Positions 7,716-30,076 of a stretch of DNA of 64,000 nucleotides are shown here, piece by piece (position 1 is the stretch's first letter; each line of letters starts with the position of its first letter). The position numbers were made by a program, and so were the translations under genes. The stretch comes from Catajapyx aquilonaris (lineage: Eukaryota): the NCBI GenBank assembly GCA_000934665.2, contig KZ538036.1:62001-126000 (forward strand). Reading direction: 5' to 3'. A model generated the notes under the pieces. The model was not told the DNA's origin, made no database searches, and was given only the letters and a program-made list of their open reading frames with translations.

Positions 7716-10468
7716 AAAGTGCAGTAAAAAACGAAGAGTTCCAGTCAAAAAATATATATATCCCCCCTAAAGATAACGGGGTATGAATTATTATAGTACC
7801 ACGTGGTAAATCAGCATTAAATTGTATCATTGTCACCGTCATTGCCAAATTTTGGCAACGGGTTCACTAGTTAAAACATGGATATTTAAATGTACTGAAA
7901 AGAGGGTCAGTAACACATCAGCAATTATATAAGGGTACGCAACCTCTGGTTTTTGGATCAACATCTTGAGAGAAATTTGATTACAGCACTGGAGGTCTCA
8001 AATTAGGGACGTATAAAGTGATAGTTAGGCATCGATTTTTTCCACAAGGTCACAAGTTCATTCTGAAAATTTTGCATGGTCGCAAATTTATAAAATGAAT
8101 CATTGAAAATCTGGACTTCGGGACACAAAGGTACAATGCATAATTTACGGGAAAGGAGATCGGTTTCTCGTAGTATCTGGGCCGGTCAATATAAGGGGCA
8201 ATGGTACCTTCCATGCACAATAGCCTAATTCAGAAGCTATTGATCACATAATTGGAGGTCAGTCACATTTGGAAATGGTTTTTTTTTGCAGGTACGAAAC
8301 ATACGGGAGGTCAGTGGCATTCACTTTTTTTTCTTGCATGAAACGACAAGGATGTGCTTCTATTATCACATCACAATGAATTTCCTGTACACATTTCACT
8401 TCCTCAGTCACACTACGCTGGAAACGCACAAAAAAATTAACGGGGAGAATTAAAAACAGACTGCGTCAGTTATATATTAATCTTTTTTAATGTTTTGGAT
8501 CTTATTTATTTTACAAGATTCCGAAGTGATCTTGAAAATACTGATAACTTATTTACAGTAAAGCGTAGAGGGGGGGGGGGGGNGGGGGGGGGAAACTTAG
8601 GAAAATTCTCTGTACACATATTCTTCCGATAGGATTGTTTTCTTTTGCCCGGCACACAAAGAAACAAACAAGCATAACGTGGATCCCACGGAAATAAAAA
8701 TCAGGAGAAATTAACAGGCCTCGAGTCACGACGAGACTAAAGGGATTGGATGGGTGACATTTAATCACACACTATGTACAGCGAGAAGAAAATTAAATTT
8801 TTTTTTTCCCATCCTCTCTCATTCACTCTCTCACACATGTCGAAACAGGGCTCCATTTTGCAAGGATGGAAGCACAATGGAGATGACTTGTTTTCGCTCG
8901 GTAGGAAACAGGAAAAGGTTGCTAAAGAGGTGAAAAGTCTGCACTACATGTTACAGTGCACTCCAGAGAGAAAAAAAATTAACCTATATTCTTCACTTTT
9001 CTGCTCGGGGGGGGGAGTGGGGGTTACCTACAACCCTATAAAATAAATTAAGTACTGAAATCCACAAAAACAAAAAAAAAAGGCTTTGGTATGTCTCCGG
9101 TCATCACGTGCGTGCCCAGCCTTTCCCAAACTAACTTCAATACCAGTACAGAGCTCCCTGACAAAAAGTTTTGTACTGTCTACTGCAAGAAATCACACCA
9201 TTCGACTGAACCAATATTCATATCCTATTGGTTTTTATCCCCTTCCATATTTTCATCACTTGTTCTTGATTTGGGACAACAAAATGCATTGGAACAGAGC
9301 GAGAGCAATCAAGAACTGAGGATCAAAAAAAAAAAACATCTTACATACAGGGTGTTCTAACAATGCTCTCTCCTATAGTGTCAATTCTTAATCCAAAAAA
9401 AAATCACCAAATATTTAACTAACCCAAAAATAATTGGAGTAAACTATGACATATCCGCAATAAAGGGGGCAAAGAACACTTCACATTCAACTTCACACTA
9501 AATACTAATTAATTAACACAAATTTTTCTTCTTCTTCAAACACGAATCAAAACACTTGTTAACAACCTATTTTTTTGTCCACTCTTGCCACACAAAACTC
9601 CCAAATAAACTAATTTACATTCGGTCACTTTGCTGCAGGTAAACTGCACCACTAACAGTCCCGAAGAGGGGAAAAAAAACCAACGTATAATAATTAGCAA
9701 GTGTCACAACAGAAAAAAAAAACCCGGTAAAACTCATAATTCCTACATTATGATTTTTGGACTCGGAGATTCCTATACTCACAGTGCCCCTCCTGGCAAT
9801 CAGTAAACTAAACAAAAAAGCTTCACACAGCCCTGAATCACAACACATGACACTCACACCAGTTCCAAAAAAAAAAAAAAAAAAAAACTCACAGGTAGAA
9901 ACCAACCACACGTCTTCTCTCAAATTTTTTGAAATCTTTTTTCTTTTCCAGAAAGGAAGCCCACACACTATACACTTGAGATGCTTTGCCACTCTTCTTG
10001 TAAATTTTTATTGCTCCCTCGCCTAATTTTTACGCATCTAAGTACTTTGACGAGCAGAAAAAAAAATCATTTAACCTCGATCCCAATTCCTATTGCACTA
10101 AAGCGCTGGACAACAGGGGGGAGAAGTGTACACAACATGATTTCTAAGCCACTTGGCGTAATCTACCTATTGCAACCCTTCCAAAAAAAAATAATCCTAA
10201 TTTGCTCAACATCTGCACCAAGAAAGAAAAAAAAAACAAACACAATTTTCCATTCACATCAATTCCAGTATACTTACCCCCGACAGAACTTATCACACCC
10301 TGTATGCATCCTTTGCAATTATTTTTCACACGCACATGTACACTCGCACGCTCTCCCAAATATATATTATATTTTCTTGTTTATATAACAGGCTCTGGCT
10401 TCAATAATAATAATAATAATAATTAATAATCATAATTAGTGAAACAGACTATCATACAGTAGTGTACA

Positions 10469-17445: not shown

Positions 17446-18602
17446 GTGTTTTGTTGAGATGGAACGGTACTGTTTACACCCAATTGAGCATGATTACAGC
17501 GCGGGCCAATGGGGAGGCCCTTTTTGCCTCCTGCAGCCTAGGATGACCTCGGCAGTCAAGTCCAATGTGCTTATGACCTTCCCAGTAAAAAACTACCCCT
17601 AATCATTCCCTTGGGGGCATACGTCGAGGCCTCCGTATGGATTTGCATCGACAACAGACATATACGTCGAGAAATATGGATTAGATCCGAGCTATCTTTT
17701 TGAAAAAAAAATAAAAAAACTTTTCGTTGTTGACAACAATGGTTGCTACAGCCAATTATTGTTATAACCGAGGTTCCAAGTGGGCTCGGGTGAAACTGGC
17801 CCCTAATTTCATTTATTTAGGGTCCAGCGATGAAACCTGTGAATGGGTCAAATTAAGGGACTTGTTTTCATTAGTGATAACCTTTTTATTTCCGACAAAT
17901 TTCAGTGGCAGATTTATTTGCATTTTATTTTATTTTTTTGGTCAGGTCAATTCCAGAGTGGGGGTGGGTGGGAGGAGCAGTTTTTTTGTTTTAAAAAAAG
18001 GTCATAATCTGCCACCAAATGTAAATGAATCAACATAAATCATGGTGAATTAAGTTATGATTTTTGTCCTATGCAATGTTTTTTTTTTCCTCTTCTTCTT
18101 CCACGGTTTGTAAAAGTTTGCATCTACGCCACACACGTAACAAAAATCGTACAAAACCACTGCTTTAAACTCGACCCCTTCACAAAACCACGGCTTCTCT
18201 TTTTTAAAACAGGGTTTTTTTTTCTCCCAAACATTCCAATAATAATAATTACCAGTCAAGTTACAAAAAAAACATACAATAAAACACGATACAATTATTA
18301 TGAAACCTCTCATTTACCGTTGCACATGATCTGCTTTTTTTTATTATTACTCCACTATCATGCATTTGGTGATGTGTCGAAATAAATGGCGGGGGTGAAA
18401 TTTGCTCCTTCGAAGAAACACAAACAATGGAAAATTTGAGAAACTGCTACTTCTTTTTAAAAATGAAACGGAGGGGAAAAAAAAGAGGGTCTACATTGTG
18501 CATCTATGTATGAAGCCCACCCTCCCGAAAAATACGTCCTTACCATGATTAAATTCACTTGCTGTTATTTTACTCGTGTGGTTGTTGCATTTTTTTAAAA
18601 AG

Positions 18603-21600
18603 TTAAGCTTCCCCTTCCTCCTCTTCCTCAGATTCAGCTTCTTCCAGCCATGTTAGCCATTGATTTACCTGGAAAAAAAATAAATCATAGAAATGGTTTC
18701 AATCATGTCAAAGAGTAAATAAAAGTGAATGTAAAATATACTCGTACATACATGTTCACATAAAATGTAAAATACAAGTAAACGTTAATGTGAAACGTAC
18801 ATAAACATGAACGTAACATGTAAAATATGCGAAAATGTGAACGTAAAATTTAAATATGTAAACATGAACGTAAAATGCAACTTACGTAAAAATTAACGTA
18901 ACGCATACGAAAACATGAATGCAAAATTTTTAAACATGTAAACGCGAACGTAAAATATATACGTAAACATATGTAACTGTGAACGTAAAATGTAAAATAT
19001 ACGTGAACGGAAAATTTAAACAAATGCAATCATTAATGTAAAAGTGAATGTTAAAAAGTATGTAAACATGAACTTAAAAAGTAAATAAATGTCACTCCAG
19101 TTTCTAACCTGAAACAAGGCCTTTCCCTTTCCGGGATAGTCGTCAGTGATGTCCTCCTTCCACTTCAGGAAGGCCTCCTCCTCAATGACCTCCAGGTCGT
19201 AGAGGTTGACGAACCACCTGAGCAGCATGCCTTTGGGGAAATGCAGGGAGTAGCAGTACACCTGCAGGGCGTAGACGGCAACCACCTGCAGTTCATGGTG
19301 GTCGTGCAGGAATGCCTGGAGCACTGGCTTGAACTTCTCCAGCAGGTCTTTCTCCTTCTCCAGGGCCGCTTTCTCCGGGAGGCTGTTGGAATCTGAGCCT
19401 TCCATCAGAGTTGTCTCCTGCGAATGACACGACTTGTTAAAAAGAACTGCTTCTGAATTCGTTTGAAGTCGACCAACCTGTGAGATGAACTTGACAAGAA
19501 CGGTAACAAGGGCATTGACAAATCCAAGTGCGGTGTGGTGCTCGGGTTCCAAGTTCTCTTTGATCCACTTGTAGAACTGCGTGGGGCTTGGGTCTGCCTG
19601 CAGCTGCTTCCACAGCTCTGACTGAATGCGTAGTAGCGGGAACAGGAAGCTGAGGCCCCTGTCCTCCAGGATCTCTGCCAGACGCTCCTTTGTGCGGTCC
19701 ATCTCTGGGAGGGTGTTCAGGAGGTTCACCTGAAAGAATGTGGACAATGAGAGTCACGCAACACGGTTCAGAGTAAGCAACACTAACCTTGCTGTCAGAG
19801 AATTGCTTGAAGAGGGAGGTCTTTCCATTGATGCGGTGCAGGTGCTGCAGAGTGAGCAGGAAGAGTGGGTAGTGACGCTCCGACTCCATGGGTTCGGCTA
19901 TCTCGGCCAGCGTGGCCAACTCCTCAGCCATGGCACGGGCAGCAAACCCGGCCACGTAGGACTTGACACGGGGAATGTCCCTCTCCAATTCCGACATCTC
20001 CCCCAGGAGTGTCTTGAATGACTCCACGAACTGCATAGGGGAGATCTGGGTATCCTTGCGCAATTGGGACATCAGCTGGGAAGCCAGCTCGCGGTCACTC
20101 TCTGCAAAGACGATGTATGTTAGTGCGATGCAACGATACTTACGACAAATGCTTGTACTAACCACTCCTGTCAAGCGTCTTGCTCATGATGAAGGTGAGC
20201 ACATCTGGTATGAGCCTCTCAGGAACCTTGAGCTCCCGGAAGTAGGTGAGGGATTCCTCTGGGTTCTTATTGTTGAGGTGTTCCTCCAGCATGTTCTCGC
20301 TCTTCTTCAGCACCTCCTCCTTTGTGGGCCCCTTGTCCTTGGCCCTTGCCGCCTTCGACTTGTCCAAGCTGGCCTGCTTGATGAGAATCGGAGCCTCCTT
20401 CTGCATCATGACTGCTGATGGCAATGGTTTCTGGTTGGGGATAACGGGCTGGGGTGGGGGAGGAAGGAGTGGATCCTGGTGGTGCTGCTGCCCTCCTCCC
20501 GAGTGGTGGTGTTGCTGCTGCTGGGCCCCTCCGCCTTGCCCTCCTCCTATGGCTGACTTGGGCAGAGCAGAAGGGGTTTTGGGTTTGAGCATCATGGAGT
20601 TGGCCGAAGGACGGAGGGACACCTCCTCATTGTTAGACTGAGACTGCTGCTGGGCCATCATCATCTTCTTGAAACGTGGCGGTAGGTTCACTGCAGGAAA
20701 CAAACATGGTTGTACTGTAGTGGATGCGACAACTGCGGCCGAGTCTACTTACCATTATTAAGGTTCTGCTGCTGGTTGAGCTGGTTCTGCATGCTCTGCT
20801 TGTTGTTCTGCGTGGATGCAAACTGCCTGGAGGTGAAGAGGGGCTGTTGTACCTGGTATCCTTGCCTGGCCCTGTACCCTCCTCCGCCTCCTCCACCTCC
20901 CTGACCAGCGGCTCCTCCGCCTCCGGTTCCCCCGCCACTACCTGGGAACCCGTTGGAGTCGAAGCCGAGCTTGTCTTGTGTTGGGATGACCCCAGGTCCA
21001 GTGCCCAGGGTGGCAGCTCCCATTGGCAAGGAGCCAAATACGTCGTCCATGCCACCCCGACCAGACTTGTTAGCCATCCGAGAGAAGAAGCCAGGCATTC
21101 CGGCCAAGGCGTTCATCCCCAATCCACCCCCACCTCCACCGCCCCCACCCAACATAACCCCTCCACCCATCCCACCCACTCCAATGCGAGGACCCATGAT
21201 TCCGCCGGGAGGGGGGATGTAAACGCCCACATCCCTCGCTGCATCTTCACGAATCTGCAACGGCAAGACAACTCATCAGATGACGATCTGAATACAAACA
21301 GTTCCAAGTAGTTACCTGCTGAATGGTCCTGGGTCCCTCTGTGCTGGCCACCTTCCTAGGCACCCACTTGTTCTCCCTGAGCTCGGTGACATCCTGCAGC
21401 ATAAAACGTATGCGCGAGGGTAGCTCCGGGTTGGCAGCCAGGATGCGCATGCGATCAAAGTACTGATCCATGAGGCTCTTGGCCTTATCCGAGTCCAAAA
21501 TGCGCCCGCACGTCTTCATTATCTGACTGAGGCATTCCAGGTCCTCAGCCATGTCTCGAATTCCTCCCCGCTTGCGTTTCTTTTCCAAAAGCTCCTGGCA

Positions 21601-22518
21601 GCATTTGTGCAAGATAGCCTCATGCAACATCTCCAACTTGCCCAACTCCCCGATGAACTGTAAGTAGCAAATGTGTTAAGACGCGACTGATTTGATCACC
21701 GTTTCCAATGTAACGCACCTTGACGTTTCCCAACATCTTCCTTTTGGCCAGCTGCCTCTGCTCCTCCTCCTCTGGAGTGAGCGGTCCATCCCTGCTATCG
21801 TAGAACTCTGTTGCCTTGGATCTGTTCTCAAATTCGTCCCTGCACTTGTTCAGGAGAAGGCGGCGGAAGGAGCAAGGGCCAAAGTCTGGGGGATCAAAGT
21901 TGGGCGCCTCTTCTGACAGCCGTTTGCACAGCTGTGCATACATAAAACTGTACTTGGGCTCATCAAGGGCCTTTTCGAAGATCTGCAAAAATATAACACG
22001 AACAATAATTTAGAAACCCTTAAAGGGGCGCCTCTTGTGTGACGAATGACAAGAATTACTCACCAGTAAGATTACTCCCTTCAGAACAACTGTTGAGTCG
22101 AGACCGATGTTTAAGAGGTCATCGCTCAGCTTCTGAAACTTCTCCGGGGTGAGCTTGTTGAGAATTCCACGGACCTACACCATAAATCGCAATTATTTTA
22201 TGAACTGTCATGCCAAATTTGATACGGAGACCTTGTTATCATTGCCATCCACCTCTGAAACTTTCAAATGAAGGGAAGGCGCTCACCTTACGAAAGATGG
22301 AGTCGTTGTTACCGCCGTCATGGGGAAGTGCATCTCGTCTAAGCGTTGGAGGTATCCATCTGCGCTTGCTTGTGGGCAGGGAACGGGGATCGTCCCTAGA
22401 GAAGGTTCATAGAGGTTAGTTACGCAGTAAATCGCGGCTGGGGGAAAATGTGAAAAAACGAAACCAACCTTCCTCCCGAGTTACGAGAAGCACCCCCCGG
22501 TCCTCTCTGCCCGTCCGT
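18603..22518 (-). CDS. EIF4G2: eIF4G2 / NAT1 / DAP5 / p97 with predicted non-AUG (ACG) start. Exons 22518-22469, 22395-22287, 22174-22064, 21982-21719, 21657-21316, 21254-20753, 20690-20163, 20101-19788, 19729-19478, 19417-19109, 18668-18603.
   Basis: GGASR, RWIPP, IFRKVRGILNKLTPEKF (MIF4G), MA3 region and W2 end GKGKALFQVNQWLTWLEEAESEEE. No eIF4E-binding N-terminal region. Confidence 0.95.
18720..19085. repeat. Degenerate AT-rich tandem repeat in the last NAT1 intron
   Basis: Recurring tgaacgtaaaatgtaaaatat-like units. Confidence 0.6.
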
Positions 22519-23126
22519 TGTTGAGTTCTTGATCAACCCCTCACAAATAAGTTAACTCAAGAAGTGTTTGTATGCCCAACTGGAAAGAAACAACAGTTAC
22601 CATTTAGCAACACGATTAAGCTCGGTCTGGTGAGAAACATGCCCTATCAACCTTCCAACCTCTGATAACAATCATGTGGAAATAGGTTACTGCCCATCTT
22701 GAACAGCCGTGATGACAGATATTTGACAATATGACGATCAACAGGAAATATCTTCCGCGCTCATGTTTGCTCAATGATAATTCAGATGCGCTTCTGTTCG
22801 ATAACACACGACTTTGGTCCTTAGGCCTGTACTACACCGGCAACATTTCCTCACAAGACGTGGACATTTCCTGGGAATTTTTCGCATCTGCCCAATTTTG
22901 GTCAACTGCTATACAAAATATTGTTTTGTAACCAACAGCAAAATATAATTTGTAGACAACAGCACAATATAGTCATTGTAACTAACAGCAATGTCTTGTA
23001 GCCAATAAAAAAAGTTATGTAGCCAACATAAAAATGAGGCCCTTTGTCCCATTTACACCTCCCGTGGCACTGACCTGAGCACATTTTATATGTAAAATGC
23101 CCTCACTTCACACGGAATGTAATCAT

Positions 23127-23560
23127 GTCAAACAAAGGCTACGACTCATGACAAAGGATATCCCGCATATGATCCTGACATCTTTCTTCTTATAATATCA
23201 ACTTATATTGGACTTAATTTTTTGTTATTATCTGAGCATGTCAACACCAAATTATGCACAACGAGGTCCTATTAATGAATTAATCAGGTCAAACAATGCT
23301 ACGACTCAGGACAAAGGATATCCTGCACACGATCCTGACATCTTTCTACTAGTTAAAAAATTATCTGAGCATATCGCTTCCAATGAGGCTTTAGGCCACT
23401 CCAACAGGACCCTATTAATGAATTAATTAAGTCAAACAAGGCTACGACTCAGGACAAAGGATTTCTTGACATCTCGTACTATTTAAATATTTTGTTATTA
23501 CCTCAGCGCCACACCCTAATGAGGCATTAGGCCTCTTCAATGGGGTCCGATTAATTAAAA
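23127..23560. repeat. About 150-bp degenerate direct repeat, 3 copies
   Basis: gtcaaacaa..gctacgactcaggacaaaggata near 23127, 23288 and 23431. Confidence 0.65.
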
Positions 23561-24253
23561 TGATCATATCATCCCCCAAAAACAGGCACATAAAATGGCA
23601 ACTTCAAAAATCCACCAACATGGCACTAGGCCTGATCAAATTTGGCCATACCTAACGAGGTTTCATGACCTTTCACATTTTTAAAAAATAAGAATTATTT
23701 CCGTTACATGCGTTGCCCGTACACACGTGCGTAAAAACCTCTTTTTTTCACACAAAGACAATCCCAGGGCGTGGTTTTCCACACTAGGCCCCGCACACCC
23801 AACACACCTTACTCTCTTCACTCTTCAGTTCCCCATGGTGTCTGCCCCTGGGGCACAAAAGTCCAAGTAAATGTCCCAAAAAAATTAAACACAAGGGTCG
23901 CCCCTAGTCCCAACTAGTGTCCCACAAGTGCTCCGGACCAGCGTCCCAAGCCAAAAAGGAAGGATCGGGACACAACGGCTGACTTTGGCCTCGTTTCGAG
24001 CACTAAAAACCACCCCCTACCACAACCCACCCCACTTAATTTTCTCTTTTTTTTTTTTTTCCTCAATTTTTCCCTACAAACCCCCGGGGTGCGTCTTCGT
24101 GCACACTACGTCCCATAGTACACTACAATCTCATAGCAGGAATATAGGTAGCTAACAGCTACTCACTAGGTACAACAAGCTAGTACGTACGTGCAAACGG
24201 TACAGTACACACTAACATGTACTCAGCACAGCAACACAATGCGATACCGACCA

Positions 24254-24345
24254 CTACGTATGGTCAACGACCTTGGCTACACCAGCCGCCATTTTGGAAC
24301 ACCAGGCTACAAAGACGCACCCAGCATCCCCCCGATGTGACGTCA
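24254..24345 (-). promoter_or_regulatory. Putative NAT1 promoter/leader with CRE, YY1/TISU-like motif and uORF
   Basis: tgacgtca at 24338-24345. The minus strand reads caaaATGGCGGC with ATG at 24292, opening MAAGVAKVVDHT*. Confidence 0.5.
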
Positions 24346-24699
24346 CAATGACTTCAGTGCATTCCATGGAACGTTCTTTTTTTTTTTCCAACTCAAAAAC
24401 CTTTTGTGTTATGGCGGATGAGTGGAATGGACTTTTGAATGCACGTGGCGAATCTTTTTTCCGACTCTGGGCATATAGAACGTTGACCCCCCCCCTTGTA
24501 CTGCATCCTTCTCCCGAAAAATGTGAGGGTCAAAAAGGAATGCGGGCCTCTTTTTTTTTTGGGTGGCTTGCTCAAGGTCATCCGCCTTTACACAGGAGGC
24601 TACAGAGGCATGACTTCCTCGCAGGAAGTTTGAGTAAGGAAGAAAAGAAAAGAAAAAATGGGATTGAAAAACATGTACCGTACTAACTGTTGGTATTAC

Positions 24700-25200
24700 A
24701 CTTTGGAGGATGCCAAGGAAAGTACCGAATTTTAAGGATAGCAAGGAAGGTACAGAATTTGAGGACACCAATGGAATAAGTACGAACAAAAGGAGGATAG
24801 CAAGGACAGTACGAAAATTTAAGGATAGCAAAGGTCAGTAGAAAGATTTAAGGACACCAAGGAAAGTACAAGCAAAAATTTTAAGGCGGATAGCAAGGAA
24901 AGTATGAAGAACACAAGGAAAGCACAAAATTTACAGATACCACCTTGATACCACGGAAAGAACAAAATGTACGGATACGAAGGCAAGAACAAAATGTACG
25001 GATACGAAGGCAAGAACAAAAAGAATACTAAGGAACATACAAAATTTAAGGATACCAAATAAAGTACAAAATGTACGGATACATGGAAAGACCAAAAAGG
25101 GGATACCAAGGAACATACAAAATTTACGGATACGACGGAAAGAACAAAATTTAAGGGCACTATGGAAAATACTGTACAAAAGGATCCTTTCAAAGAATGA
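24700..25200. repeat. Degenerate about 28-30 bp purine-rich tandem repeat
   Basis: Repeated aaggaaagtacaaaatttaaggatacc variants. Confidence 0.7.
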
Positions 25201-27525
25201 ATTTGCAGTGTTCTGCAATAATTCACATTGGAAGTTGTTCCCCATATTACTAAGCAAGAAAGTGAAACTCAGTTTTTTAAAAAATATCTGTCCCCTCAGT
25301 AAGTAAAAACCTGGGATCAAAAGACTGGGATTGTTATGCACTTGAAATGGCCACAGCAGGTACTAAAAAGCTTCCGGAATTTTACTATTAATTTTTCAGG
25401 CAATAGTTGATTATGGCCAATTTTTTTTGAGTTGTTCACAACATGTATGTTTTAATAAAGGACACCAGGGAAAGTACACGAGGCACCAAGTACAAAAATT
25501 TAAGGAGGGTACCATGGAAAGGAACAAACAAATATCGATGCATGAAGAGCAAGTAGGCAACAGCTACATGTCGTTACATTGCTTCCATGGTCATGTTCAT
25601 GAACAGGTCTATGATGGTGTGATAATAATAAATGTCAGCACCTGCTGTATTGCCCAACCAGCATCGCCCTCGAGGCAGATAATTAGATGATTGCAAAAAT
25701 GCAGGTTTTGTGGGAAGTTGCGCCAGTTCCAGCGACTGGTAAACAGAGAAATTGACCTTGTGGAAATTGGCCAACTATTCCATATAAACACTGGCAGCTC
25801 CCAAACAAACTATAACAAGGACGTAGACTTGCAGGAGAAAGCCTTGAGGGTATGTGTGTGTGAAGGACACACGTGTGCACAGAAGCTAAAATCCCTTGGG
25901 ATATGAAATTGGTGTGCGTCTCACAAGTTGGTCCTGTGACCTATGGCTCACACACTCATGAAATGAGTGTTTACGTAAGGTCTGGAGTCCAGCCAAAAAT
26001 GCTTGGGGAACAAGTACCCTCGTGCGTAGGTCCCATTTCGTCAGGTGTTTGCCAACAAGTCTGGCAAATCCATCTTGGCTCACACATCTGAGTCGGTCCG
26101 GGGGATGGAGAGAGGAACCGAAATTTTCATTGACGTGTTCACTAGTTCTGAGTACAGCCACTTGTCATCTGTTGGACCGATGCCAAGCTTACTTTACGGG
26201 AAGGCTTTTGGACGTCAACTCTACATTAAGATCAGCCCTACCTGAACTGTTTACATGCATGTAATACTGCTCATGCCATGATTTCCATTCAATTGCTCAC
26301 ACACAACAAAAATGCAGTACCAAAAATAGCTGTGTTTCAGTTGTGGACACGTCAGTTTTGCTATCCTCGTTCCCATCAATACTGTAATCAATATTTCACA
26401 ATATTGTTTTCCATTCATGTCCTTGCCCCCAAGATTTCTCAGACTCGTGCAGATGTCACATACGCACACATGAGCGAGCAATGACCAGTCATCTGATAGA
26501 AATTTTTAAATCAGATAACTGGATTTCTCACAGAGCAACGTCACACACATCCGCATCATTACAAGCTATAGACAACAATGTTCCGGAGAATCAGCGTTCC
26601 TTTCCGCATCAAATTTCTGCTGCGGAATGTTCACCAGTTTTTCTTAAAACATTAATCAGAATATAATTACATTTTCCAAGAACTGGCCACATTTCCCATG
26701 ACACCAACGTCATCACCTTTTTTTTTATTTACATATATGTTCGCATAAAACCGTTTTCACTTCTAAAACTGGCTAAATTTTTGTGGCGTACACACGTCAC
26801 AATCCGGTACTAACCATAACTATTTAAAATAAACCATAATTGTAACAATTAAAATATTGGAATACTCACGGAGAAAGGGAAAGTGTCCCAACCAAAACCA
26901 AAACCACTTTTGATGGGGAAGGAGGGGGGGAGCTTCGGGCAGTGACTGTCTTATAAAAGGTGGATAACGTTATGACTCATGTGGTGGTGTAATAAATATT
27001 CTCGAACAATAAAATTAATAACAAAATCAATATACGGAATAATGTGTGCTAATTAATAAAAAAATTAGCTGGGTTTTAAACATTTTTGTGCGGATCAATT
27101 TTGAAGTTGAGAGTTTGTGGTTGATAAAAGATGGCGTCCGTATCGTTCGAACCAGCAGGTTCAAATTTTAATTAGTTTTTAAATTAATAAATAAGCACGA
27201 TTTTTTTAAATATATATATATATACAAGTTAATATGTAAATGTTTTTTTGTGGTGACTGGATCAACTATGGCGTCCCGATTTTGCATTGTTGGTCACATG
27301 TTTGCAAGTTACATCATTGGCCGTACATGACGTCTGATATCAGTTGAACTTGAAGGAGTTTACTTTGCATCGTATGACTCTCAATCATCCGTAGCACAAT
27401 AAGGACACAGAGGTTTGCATACGCTACATACTCAAATATCATAAACAGTTGTCATGCACTGAAATGTACTTAGGGTACGCTTTGATTTGAAATGTACTCC
27501 CTCTTTTTGTCTTTGCGTACAGAGG

Positions 27526-30076
27526 ATGGCTGAAGGTAATAGCGGATGGCTGTCCTCTGGAGGTCAGAGGAACTATGGAAGTACTGGAGTTCCGGATGTG
27601 AGGATTGCAGAGCCGCAGTCGGCAGAGTTCCGTCAGCTGTGCGAGGGTGTGACGACCAACATCTTCACGATCAATCACAGCGGGAAGACGCTTGAACATA
27701 TGCTCAGGCTTATTGGGAGCGCAAGGGATAATAAGGGGATCAGGGACCAGATGTAAGGAGTTATAAAACGAAAATGTTGCACCAAAGTCAAAGCCAAAGA
27801 AACTATAAAGCACATTATTACAGGCCATCATGTGTCTCATAGGGCCGGTTTCACCAAGAGCGATGATAAAACCGCGGTTCTTTCAGAAAATCCATACCAA
27901 TAATAATAATAATATATAATAATGGATACCCCGTGATAGGCCCCTTGGGCCTCTTAGGGGATCATCTTTTGAATAACCGACTTTAATCATTTGCCTGTAA
28001 TGTGATGGATTTTGATAGTGGGAGGAAACGGGAGAACCCCGAGAAAACCCACGCGAACAAGGAGAGAACCCATCGAAACTCTATCCACATAAGTATCCTC
28101 CGTCCGACCCGGGGATCGAACTCGGGACCTTAGAGGTGGTAGGCTGCGGCGCTAACCACTCGGCCACCGTGTCGCCCTAATCCATACCAATATGTTTTTA
28201 GAAAGAATCTCAGTTTTGTAGTATAACACTTTTGGAGAAACTGGCCCTTTGTTGTGCTGCGGATCTGAATCACAGCTCGGTAAATGATGACCTAGATAAT
28301 TGCGCCAGTAACTTGTTGACAGGATGTGGTGGCACTTGTAGATTATGCATGAAACTTGCAATGATATTATGCTGAAGTCTCATGTGCAAGGGAGTTACGA
28401 CTCATCTGGCACATTGCGAATTGATTTAAAACATGCTACAGCTTGGCATTTATGAGCCATTTTAATGTGAACAACATTTCGCAATTTTATAACAGCACAG
28501 GAAGGGGCTGTTGAATACACTGGAATGTGCTTGTGTTATGGCCACCAACATTCCAATCATGCCAGAATTATCATGAGCAATGCTCTCAGAGAATATTGGA
28601 AGTGTTGGCAGCTGCATGCAGAATATCTCTTTTATGTTTATAAAAGGAAAAGTTGGTATGTTTGTCCAGGCTACCTAACCCACTTTCAGACTACTGAGAG
28701 TGCTGACATTCGGCACACTGGGAAAAGTCCCGAAACCACTATTTTTGAAAGTCTAATTACCCAAATTTAGGATTTCTTCTTGTCCTAAATTAAATGAGCC
28801 TTGCCTTTACGAGATGTTAAATCATTGCTGATATGAGACAATGGACATAACATTATTAGTGTTCAATTGTTAGGGATGTTTGTGATATGATCAAAATTGT
28901 TTAATGTTGTTATCTTTTATAGTGACTGGATTTCTAGCTATTCTGGCAACCACGATACATGATTGTTTGCGGTTGATAAGGCCTGTTTACAGGACAGCAC
29001 TTTTTAAAACACGTTTCACCGAGCACGTACAGCTAACACTTTCATGTCATTGGAAATTTCATAGGCATTATCATGACAAATATATTTTAAGCATATAAAT
29101 TTTAGAAGTCTAATTGTATTGCATCAGTAAGTTAAGATTACTGTATTTGACGGCATATAAGACACCCCCATTTCAGCAGATCATATTCAGGAAAAAACCT
29201 ATTCGCATGTAAGAGGCACAGCAATTTTTTGAGCAATTTTTTGGGGAATAAGGTACGTCTTGTATGCTGTCAAATACACCATTATGTTTGCCATGATAAC
29301 TTAATCCGAGCATAAATTCCCAGCCATCTGACCCAGATGAGTGCCAAGCAATTAATGGCCCAAACTACTGAGAATCTGAAGCGTCTGAATCTGATGGCAA
29401 GAAGGGGTGAGCGGCAGGGAAAACTTCAGGCGGAGAGACTCACAAATGAATTCCAGAATTCGGTGCAGCGCTACAACGCAATTCAGAAGCAGATTGCGTC
29501 TAAGCTGAGATCGTACATGCCAAGTCAATCCATTGCACAGGAAGAGGAGTTGGGAGGGTCCACGGATCAGTTGCTGGCCGAGGAAGAGAAAAAGCAACAG
29601 CAGAAGCAACTGTTACAGGAACTGGAATTCGAGCAGGGAATGCTGCTGGAGAGGGAACAAAGGATAAAGCAGATCGAGTCGGACATTATCGATGTTAATG
29701 ACATTATGAAGGAGCTGTCCGTTATGGTTGAAGAGCAGGGACAGACTGTCAGTAAGTCGTTCATGTCATAGTTTTTGTAGACTTAAGCTACTTTTCTTCA
29801 TGATAAAATTGGTCAATGATCACAACTTATTTGCAGATTCAATTGAGAACAATATTGAAACTGCCTACACTGACGTGGAGCAGGGAAGAGATCAGTTGCA
29901 AAAGGCATCTTCATATCAAGTACGTATCATCAGTACATGCCGTAAAAGCACGTTTGTTAATCTCCGTGTGTTTACAGAACAAGTTCCGCAAACGTCTGTG
30001 CATCTTACTGGCGATTGGTACCATTGTCGCAATTGTGTTAATAGTGATTTTGGTGACTCAGCTCAAGACAAGTTAG
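27526..30076 (+). CDS. STX12: Syntaxin-7/12(13) family Qa-SNARE. Exons 27526-27752, 29324-29751, 29837-29919, 29978-30076.
   Basis: Habc region (KLQAERLTNEF), SNARE motif EREQRIKQIESDIIDVNDIMKELSVMVEEQGQTVNSIENNIE and C-terminal TM. STX7 versus STX12 cannot be resolved by eye. Confidence 0.9.
27903..28178 (-). mobile_element. Full-length tRNA-derived SINE with a V-domain-like core
   Basis: Minus strand: ggtggccgagtggttag (A box), gagttcgatccc (B box), gcgtgggttttctcggggttctcccgtttcctccca core and (TTA)n-like tail. 14-bp TSD aatccataccaata at 27889-27902 and 28179-28192. Confidence 0.85.
29139..29279. mobile_element. Short Tc1/mariner (Tigger-like) MITE remnant
   Basis: tactgtatttgacggcatataagac / gtcttgtatgctgtcaaatacac imperfect inverted ends. 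Confidence 0.5.

Follow-up and report, generated by a model that had tools for sequence, protein, structure and literature searches.

A probable ACG start codon for an arthropod eIF4G2/NAT1/DAP5 gene at the position of the vertebrate GUG

We analysed a 64,000-nucleotide stretch of DNA (the window) for the translation start of a gene on its minus strand. Our reading, held with considerable confidence, is that this gene is a pancrustacean eIF4G2/NAT1/DAP5 orthologue whose only productive start would be the ACG codon at 22518-22516. Comparison with relatives strongly supports an ACG start where vertebrates have their GUG. That eIF4G2 initiates at a non-AUG codon is in itself a textbook example.

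Results and discussion

Identity and exon structure of the gene

The minus-strand gene is an orthologue of eIF4G2/NAT1/DAP5. Pfam found MIF4G (1.5e-13 and 4.3e-25), MA3 (3.1e-05) and W2 (1.7e-13) on the window exons, and the order MIF4G, MA3, W2 is the one required of such an orthologue. All three domains are also present in the full-length relatives P0026 and P0012. The top named protein matches are eIF4G2 proteins (from Daphnia, Strigamia, Penaeus, Branchiostoma and others) at 64-77% identity, and eIF4G1 matches the window gene at 46% identity at most. MIF4G occupies residues 58-281 of P0001, a relative 96% identical to the window protein. With MIF4G beginning at residue 58 of that relative and a TAA 12 codons 5′ of the ACG, the N-terminus is short and does not contain the long eIF4E/PABP-binding part of eIF4G1.

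The transcript is known from one run only, X1, which has no recorded kind. We took the X1 contigs as RNA-derived because ten introns are missing from them, each of which reads CT..AC on the plus strand and GT..AG on the gene strand. The donor at 22469/22468 and nine further GT..AG introns are seen in these contigs, with the exon 1/exon 2 joint at 22394/22468, giving 11 exons on the minus strand. Exon cuts were set to GT..AG, after which the exons were joined and translated; the frame from the ACG through the joined exons is intact for 948 codons. The parts of the gene are as follows, with the evidence for each in brackets where it applies.

22469..22579, minus strand: start-codon exon, 111 nt (sequence; donor joint in an X1 contig)
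22579-22519, minus strand: 5′ leader part of the start-codon exon, 61 nt (sequence)
22518-22469, minus strand: first 50 nt of the coding sequence, in the start-codon exon (sequence)
18603..22395, minus strand: remaining coding sequence (X1 joints, GT..AG cuts, translation, Pfam)
22395-22287, 22174-22064, 21982-21719, 21657-21316 and 21254-20753, minus strand: coding exons 2-6
20690-20163, 20101-19788, 19729-19478 and 19417-19109, minus strand: coding exons 7-10
18668-17889, minus strand: last exon, with coding part 18668-18603 and stop codon 18605-18603
17889..18602, minus strand: 3′ UTR, 714 nt, to the end of the RNA contig (X1 contigs)

The start-codon exon

The original prediction described the exon from 22579 to 22469 as one in which an in-frame TAA (22554-22552) closes the NAT1 frame, with no in-frame ATG before YSFMY and with an ACG in ideal context preceded by in-frame ATT, TTG and ATC. 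Our reading of the minus strand agrees with it on each of these points and on the quoted frame (ACA ACG GAC GGG CAG AGA GGA CCG GGG GGT GCT TCT CGT), and the TAA is borne out by a spliced X1 contig as well. The exon holds no ATG in any frame. Its landmarks, and the first in-frame ATG beyond it, are these:

22552..22554, minus strand: in-frame TAA, 12 codons 5′ of the ACG (sequence; same RNA contig as exon 2)
22516..22518, minus strand: proposed initiation codon ACG (sequence; homologous codon in relatives)
22515..22521, minus strand: Kozak-type context A(-3)CA ACG G(+4), with A at 22521 and G at 22515
21941..21943, minus strand: first in-frame ATG, codon 104, inside MIF4G (..YSFMYAQ..), in the poor context TTTATGT

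The X1 contig across the exon 1/exon 2 joint extends for at least 110 letters on its exon-1 side, which puts the TAA, the ACG and exon 2 on a single spliced RNA. From the closest stop 5′ of the ACG to the conserved N-terminal region, the window contains no in-frame AUG; with the TAA on the same RNA contig and an exon 1 free of ATG, there is no room for one. The codon that aligns with the vertebrate GUG is a near-cognate one, with a purine at -3 and G at +4. By rough reasoning, when this window is taken by itself, chance could account for a single near-cognate codon with favourable flanks within about 12 codons; the weight of the argument rests on the relatives.

Most database models miss the ACG. 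Among the best 120 matches, 27 begin at the Met of an internal MYAxLC homologous to codon 104, within the MIF4G domain; to others, upstream exons of unrelated sequence have been attached. If the window protein also began at codon 104, about 50 of the roughly 224 MIF4G residues (58-281 in P0001) would be deleted, and scanning ribosomes would have five out-of-frame ATGs to pass before reaching an ATG in the context TTTATGT. The 103 codons 5′ of codon 104 are moreover open and conserved across phyla (e.g., RGILNKLTPEKF), and we regard a start at this codon as extremely unlikely. A start at the ACG would account for both kinds of systematic annotation error, the internal-Met starts and the invented upstream exons. 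As a separate matter of annotation, the eIF4G2 orthologues of two species are named 'N-acetyltransferase 1' in the database, apparently through a misreading of the symbol NAT1.

The homologous codon in relatives

An N-terminal alignment (A1) was scanned against metagenome and metatranscriptome contigs, which gave 256 matching stretches and 224 relatives, and the best 80 were kept. Most of these 80 loci are transcript contigs, with a leader of 60-670 nt. The homologous codon was located by regular expression and, in the remaining loci, from blastn matches to exon 1 or by inspecting the motif by eye. We left out loci whose 5′ end is cut (L023, L028, L052, L069, L076) and divergent or genomic loci in which the exon was not recognised (L062, L064, L068, L073-L075, L077-L079). 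The TTG that matched in L062 was dropped, being 531 codons away from a stop and part of a long N-terminus of the eIF4G1 type.

The site is covered in 66 of the best 80 of the 224 loci and reads ACG in 53 (many of the loci are close kin, so that these do not stand for 53 independent events), CTG in 11, GTG in two and ATG in none. The residues at the site are thus T, L and V only, and each of the codons is one step from AUG. Clustering 46 loci on their first 90 nt, with a threshold of 85% nucleotide identity, gave 23 clusters, with ACG in 19, CTG in two and GTG in two. The context is kept as well: A stands at -3 in 65 of the 66 loci (L050 has G), G stands at +4 in all 66, and the -3 and +4 columns are invariant in alignment A2. 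Where the site encodes Thr, the codon is always ACG (53/53), compared with 83 of 599 Thr codons downstream (next 300 codons, 45 loci), which is beyond the expectation of synonymous drift. The Thr codons immediately 5′ of the site vary (aca, acc, acg).

The leaders of the relatives resemble that of the window gene. In 42 of 45 loci the stretch from the upstream stop, 4-82 codons away, to the site is free of in-frame ATG; the exceptions, each with one such ATG, are L035, L037 and L062. Over the leader length covered, ATG is missing from all three frames in 33 of 45 loci, and in most loci the next in-frame Met comes about 100 codons downstream of the site. The original prediction had also placed the ACG 7 codons before GGASR, like the vertebrate GUG. 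This spacing to GG(A/V)SR is found in the informative loci, including a fish protein (P0116, ..KVESVVAEGGASR..) and the vertebrate-like L059, which has GTG at the site.

Where the conserved peptide begins

The N-terminal motifs of the window and of representatives of other groups are listed below; for many relatives it is a gene-caller or read-through model that brings the N-terminus to light.

Window: ..STTDGQRGPGGASR
Daphnia-like P0012: ..SKTDGQRGHGGASR
Stick insects P0057 and P0060: ..ATTDGPRGPGGASR
Shrimp P0066: ..ATTDGQRSQGGASR
Scorpion P0098: ..VTTDGQRGLGGASR
Molluscs: ..ILDGQQGQGGASP or ..ILDSQSSKGGVSP
Fish model: ..AKVESVVAEGGASR

Every listed group has T, L or V 7 codons before GG(A/V)S. 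Conservation of the motif sets in precisely at the residue that aligns with the window ACG, and the residues 5′ of this T/L/V are unrelated between groups; the stick insect, shrimp, scorpion and Daphnia-like N-termini, for example, diverge 5′ of the T in TDG(Q/P)RG..GGASR. At the nucleotide level, blastn of the 80 loci against the window matched exon 1 in 15. The matches start at 22519-22531 and end at the donor, with 77-94% identity, and none of the 80 loci matched the window upstream of 22531.

This boundary bears on the in-frame near-cognate codons that lie between the TAA and the ACG (ATT at 22548-46, TTG at 22536-34 and ATC at 22533-31). The main start could be at one of them, with the ACG as an internal Thr codon. 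TTG has G at -3, and the gene caller opened P0001 at TTG, a choice that reflects only the caller's permitted start codons. The flanking bases are less favourable otherwise, since +4 is A for TTG, and -3 is C or T for ATT and ATC. Similarity to relatives ceases 5′ of about 22531, the residues preceding the T vary from lineage to lineage, and three loci (L066, L041, L032) have an in-frame stop 4-5 codons before the site, so that a conserved alternative start is lacking. A main start at an upstream near-cognate codon is thus, in our judgement, quite unlikely; TTG, ATT and ATC could give minor longer forms beside the product of the ACG.

Distribution of ACG, CTG and GTG among groups

Loci were assigned to groups with a FastTree tree of the MIF4G part, which has SH-like support only and an arbitrary root. 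The ACG loci that could be placed group with named arthropods, namely branchiopods, hexapods, copepods and chelicerates. L001-L004 fall with Daphnia and Artemia (support 96), L005, L007, L009, L027, L071 and L080 with stick insects and mayfly (support 95), and L048, L065, L067 and L070 with scorpion, spider and centipede. The copepod-like loci form a block of 30 rows (support 99). Three ACG loci (L025, L037, L058) have no resolved place in the tree, and the other ACG loci have no usable row. P0001 itself is unresolved among pancrustaceans, its highest identity being 79%, to a Daphnia-like protein.

CTG is found in molluscs and in at least one further set of loci. L041 groups with Biomphalaria (support 100) and L066 with other molluscs; L008 and L036 have no usable tree row and carry the mollusc-type motif ILD.Q. 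The remaining CTG loci (L050, L053-L057, L060) are one unplaced non-arthropod group with the context GCT AAA CTG GA(C/A), close to the vertebrate-like ..GCC AAA GTG GAG, and may be invertebrate deuterostomes. Of the two GTG loci, L059 groups with fish (support 100) and L032 is unplaced.

In these comparisons ACG is an arthropod-wide state, of which the window gene is an ordinary member. The alignment of arthropod leaders that the original prediction had suggested gives ACG at the site in all 53 arthropod-affiliated loci covering it. This result divides a further claim of that prediction, that the lineage keeps non-AUG initiation with another near-cognate codon: a conserved non-AUG start fits all the comparisons made here, and the ACG is not specific to the lineage.

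The copepod-like transcripts (L010-L031, L038, L043, L047, L049) all open with ..CCAAGCTAATATTGCTTGATTCACTTCTACAAGAG in the first ~40 nt. These openings match the published 46-nt calanoid spliced leader (PMC4664967, Table 1), which indicates that the transcripts are trans-spliced copepod mRNAs and that their whole leader is about 100 nt. In the copepod loci GCU or GCC follows directly after the ACG, which fits the copepod start consensus AAAAUGGCU given in the same source (PMC4664967).

The putative acceptor at 22579 and the upstream leader

The start-codon exon begins at what looks like a splice acceptor:

22580..22592, minus strand: putative 3′ splice site, pyrimidine run and AG, ttgtttctttccag/TTGGGC (sequence; layout in relatives)

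We treat the acceptor at 22579 as putative on the strength of this splice-site sequence and of the layout in relatives. A Daphnia-like transcript (L002) leaves its genomic locus (L063) at ..ctctttttcag/CTTCAC, about 80 nt 5′ of the ACG, and in L033, an insect genomic locus, tttttacag stands about 65 nt 5′ of the ACG. Among the X1 contigs shown, none joins 22579 to an upstream exon, and an upstream non-coding exon was not found. By arithmetic from record length and bin depth, a 988-letter X1 contig ends at 22579, and an end there is no proof of an acceptor. X1 cover upstream is zero in bins 22642-24377 and 26114-26981; in bins 24378-26113 it has a depth of 0.2-2, from contigs just 90-95% alike that are probably repeats.

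An ATG-bearing isoform might in principle lie hidden upstream, either as an exon spliced to an AG 3′ of the TAA or as another first coding exon spliced onto exon 2. There are AG dinucleotides in the interval from the TAA to the ACG, and X1, the sole run with the RNA, did not reveal the exon that precedes 22579. Yet the only contig over the exon 1/exon 2 joint bears both the TAA and the ACG, and the relatives, mostly transcript contigs, tell against such an isoform by the three features described above: none of 66 with ATG at the site, 42 of 45 with no upstream in-frame ATG, and a conserved peptide that starts at the ACG. We consider an unseen ATG isoform very improbable.

Synonymous constraint downstream of the ACG

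The codons that follow the ACG are unusually conserved at the nucleotide level:

22469..22515, minus strand: codons 2-17, strong synonymous constraint (codon comparison with cladoceran and insect loci)

At residues identical between the window and the cladoceran and insect loci, the same codon is used at 13 of 14 positions in codons 2-17, compared with 91-97 of 189-207 in codons 18-300 (Fisher p ~5e-4 to 2e-3). Against copepod, mollusc and vertebrate-like loci the difference shrinks or disappears. Blastn similarity, at 85-91%, likewise extends over 22531-22467 only. As judged from this codon usage, the first ~50 coding nucleotides are constrained at the RNA level, and codons 2-17 are possibly an RNA element that aids initiation. 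Across codons 2-17, synonymous sites are near-frozen in the window and in L001-L009, L037, L048 and L058. GGT GCT TCT CGT is kept from branchiopods to insects, and TCT CGT is kept even in vertebrate-like and mollusc-like loci.

Searches for a structure behind this constraint gave little. RNAalifold returned no consensus pair for 22 sequences from -30 to +90, and folds of the window spliced mRNA around the start were not more stable than mononucleotide shuffles (z -0.4 to -1.4). Rfam found no family in 22000-29000. A local hairpin (CUUCUCG/CGGGAGG) is invariant and so gives no covariation signal either way, and a two-tier G-quadruplex near the start is speculation on our part. Part of the ACG invariance in close relatives could reflect the RNA constraint on codons 2-17 and not the identity of the start; the following codons differ in copepods, which argues against this account.

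A model for initiation and its relation to known systems

We infer that ribosomes start at the ACG, that Met is inserted there, that the downstream bases have a role and that the arrangement has a regulatory purpose. A scanning 43S complex would cross an AUG-free leader, of which 61 nt are known here, and the initiator Met-tRNA would pair with the ACG, aided by A at -3 and G at +4. The RNA feature in the first ~50 coding nucleotides would probably help as well. The predicted product has 948 residues and, with Met inserted at the ACG, the N-terminus Met-Asp-Gly-Gln-Arg. The weak, factor-sensitive start may be the selected state, as with the vertebrate GUG, and, if it behaves like that GUG (PMC9945437), eIF4G2 output would depend on start-codon stringency.

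The vertebrate gene is the closest known system. Vertebrate EIF4G2/NAT1/DAP5 is translated solely from GUG (PMC9945437; PMC5666671), in human, mouse, zebrafish and Xenopus, and eIF5 promotes and 5MP reduces the use of this GUG (PMC9945437). The window gene is alike in being orthologous, in having its start 7 codons before GGASR with A at -3 and G at +4, in having no in-frame AUG before MIF4G and in the strong conservation around the start codon; it differs in having ACG and not GUG. A second difference concerns the mammalian 'NAT1 motif', a GC-rich GCCGCC at -9..-4 within GCCGCC(A/G)NN (PMC13754004). This motif is absent in the window, where -9..-4 is AACTCA (2/6 matches), and ACG loci mostly match it at 0-3 of 6 positions, whereas the vertebrate-like L059 matches at 5 of 6. 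Its lack at ACG loci distinguishes the arthropod from the mammalian form.

ACG- or UUG-initiated cases such as GRS1 make an extended isoform beside an AUG form. Yeast GRS1, which is among the ACG- or UUG-initiated cellular proteins (PMC5666671), is similar to the window gene in that a near-cognate ACG is decoded as a start; the window gene is unlike it in that the ACG would be the sole start of an essential factor. ACG is roughly as efficient a start as CUG in human cells when the motif around it is optimal (PMC13754004). Among arthropods, Drosophila NAT1 is an orthologue with a reported non-AUG start, described as unmapped (PMC9945437); the CUG named for it in the original prediction is to be read as tentative. 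In passages of PMC9945437, PMC13754004, PMC5354226, PMC5714202, PMC5666671 and PMC4705826 we found no ACG start for eIF4G2, and an earlier description may exist in the 2005 primary work, supplements, FlyBase or RefSeq. The ACG start is apparently a new codon variant of the known non-AUG initiation of eIF4G2.

Under our model the codon at this one position would have switched between ACG, CUG and GUG from phylum to phylum, and never to AUG. A broader version, to which we give slightly less than even credence, is that the start site is fixed across Bilateria through these exchanges and that codons 2-17 are a new RNA element with which the start works without the mammalian GC-rich motif. If so, a deliberately weak, fidelity-sensing start would have been held by selection for more than half a billion years, as CUG in molluscs and at least one other group, ACG in arthropods and GUG in vertebrates. 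The exchange of near-cognates at one site, together with the frozen codons 2-17, is a natural experiment bearing on why eIF4G2 avoids AUG and on which RNA features make near-cognate starts efficient. In practical terms, an exact start (ACG, with A at -3 and G at +4) would give those who work on branchiopods, copepods, hexapods and chelicerates the correct N-terminus of the protein.

Other features of the window

The window contains 65 N in assembly gaps, at ~8540-8600 and elsewhere. A plus-strand neighbour lies at 27410-30000, with GT..AG joints at 27410/27521, 27752/29324, 29751/29837 and 29919/29978. Within its 1571-nt intron, the segment 27850-28283 has a summed depth of 383, from up to 18 contigs with many loose ends, and is probably an expressed repeat; ARAGORN found no tRNA in 27700-28400, and Rfam gave no family at 27850-28283. 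The neighbour exon at 29316-29771 looks by eye like a syntaxin-type coiled coil. The neighbour is divergent from eIF4G2, and the two genes may share a promoter region.
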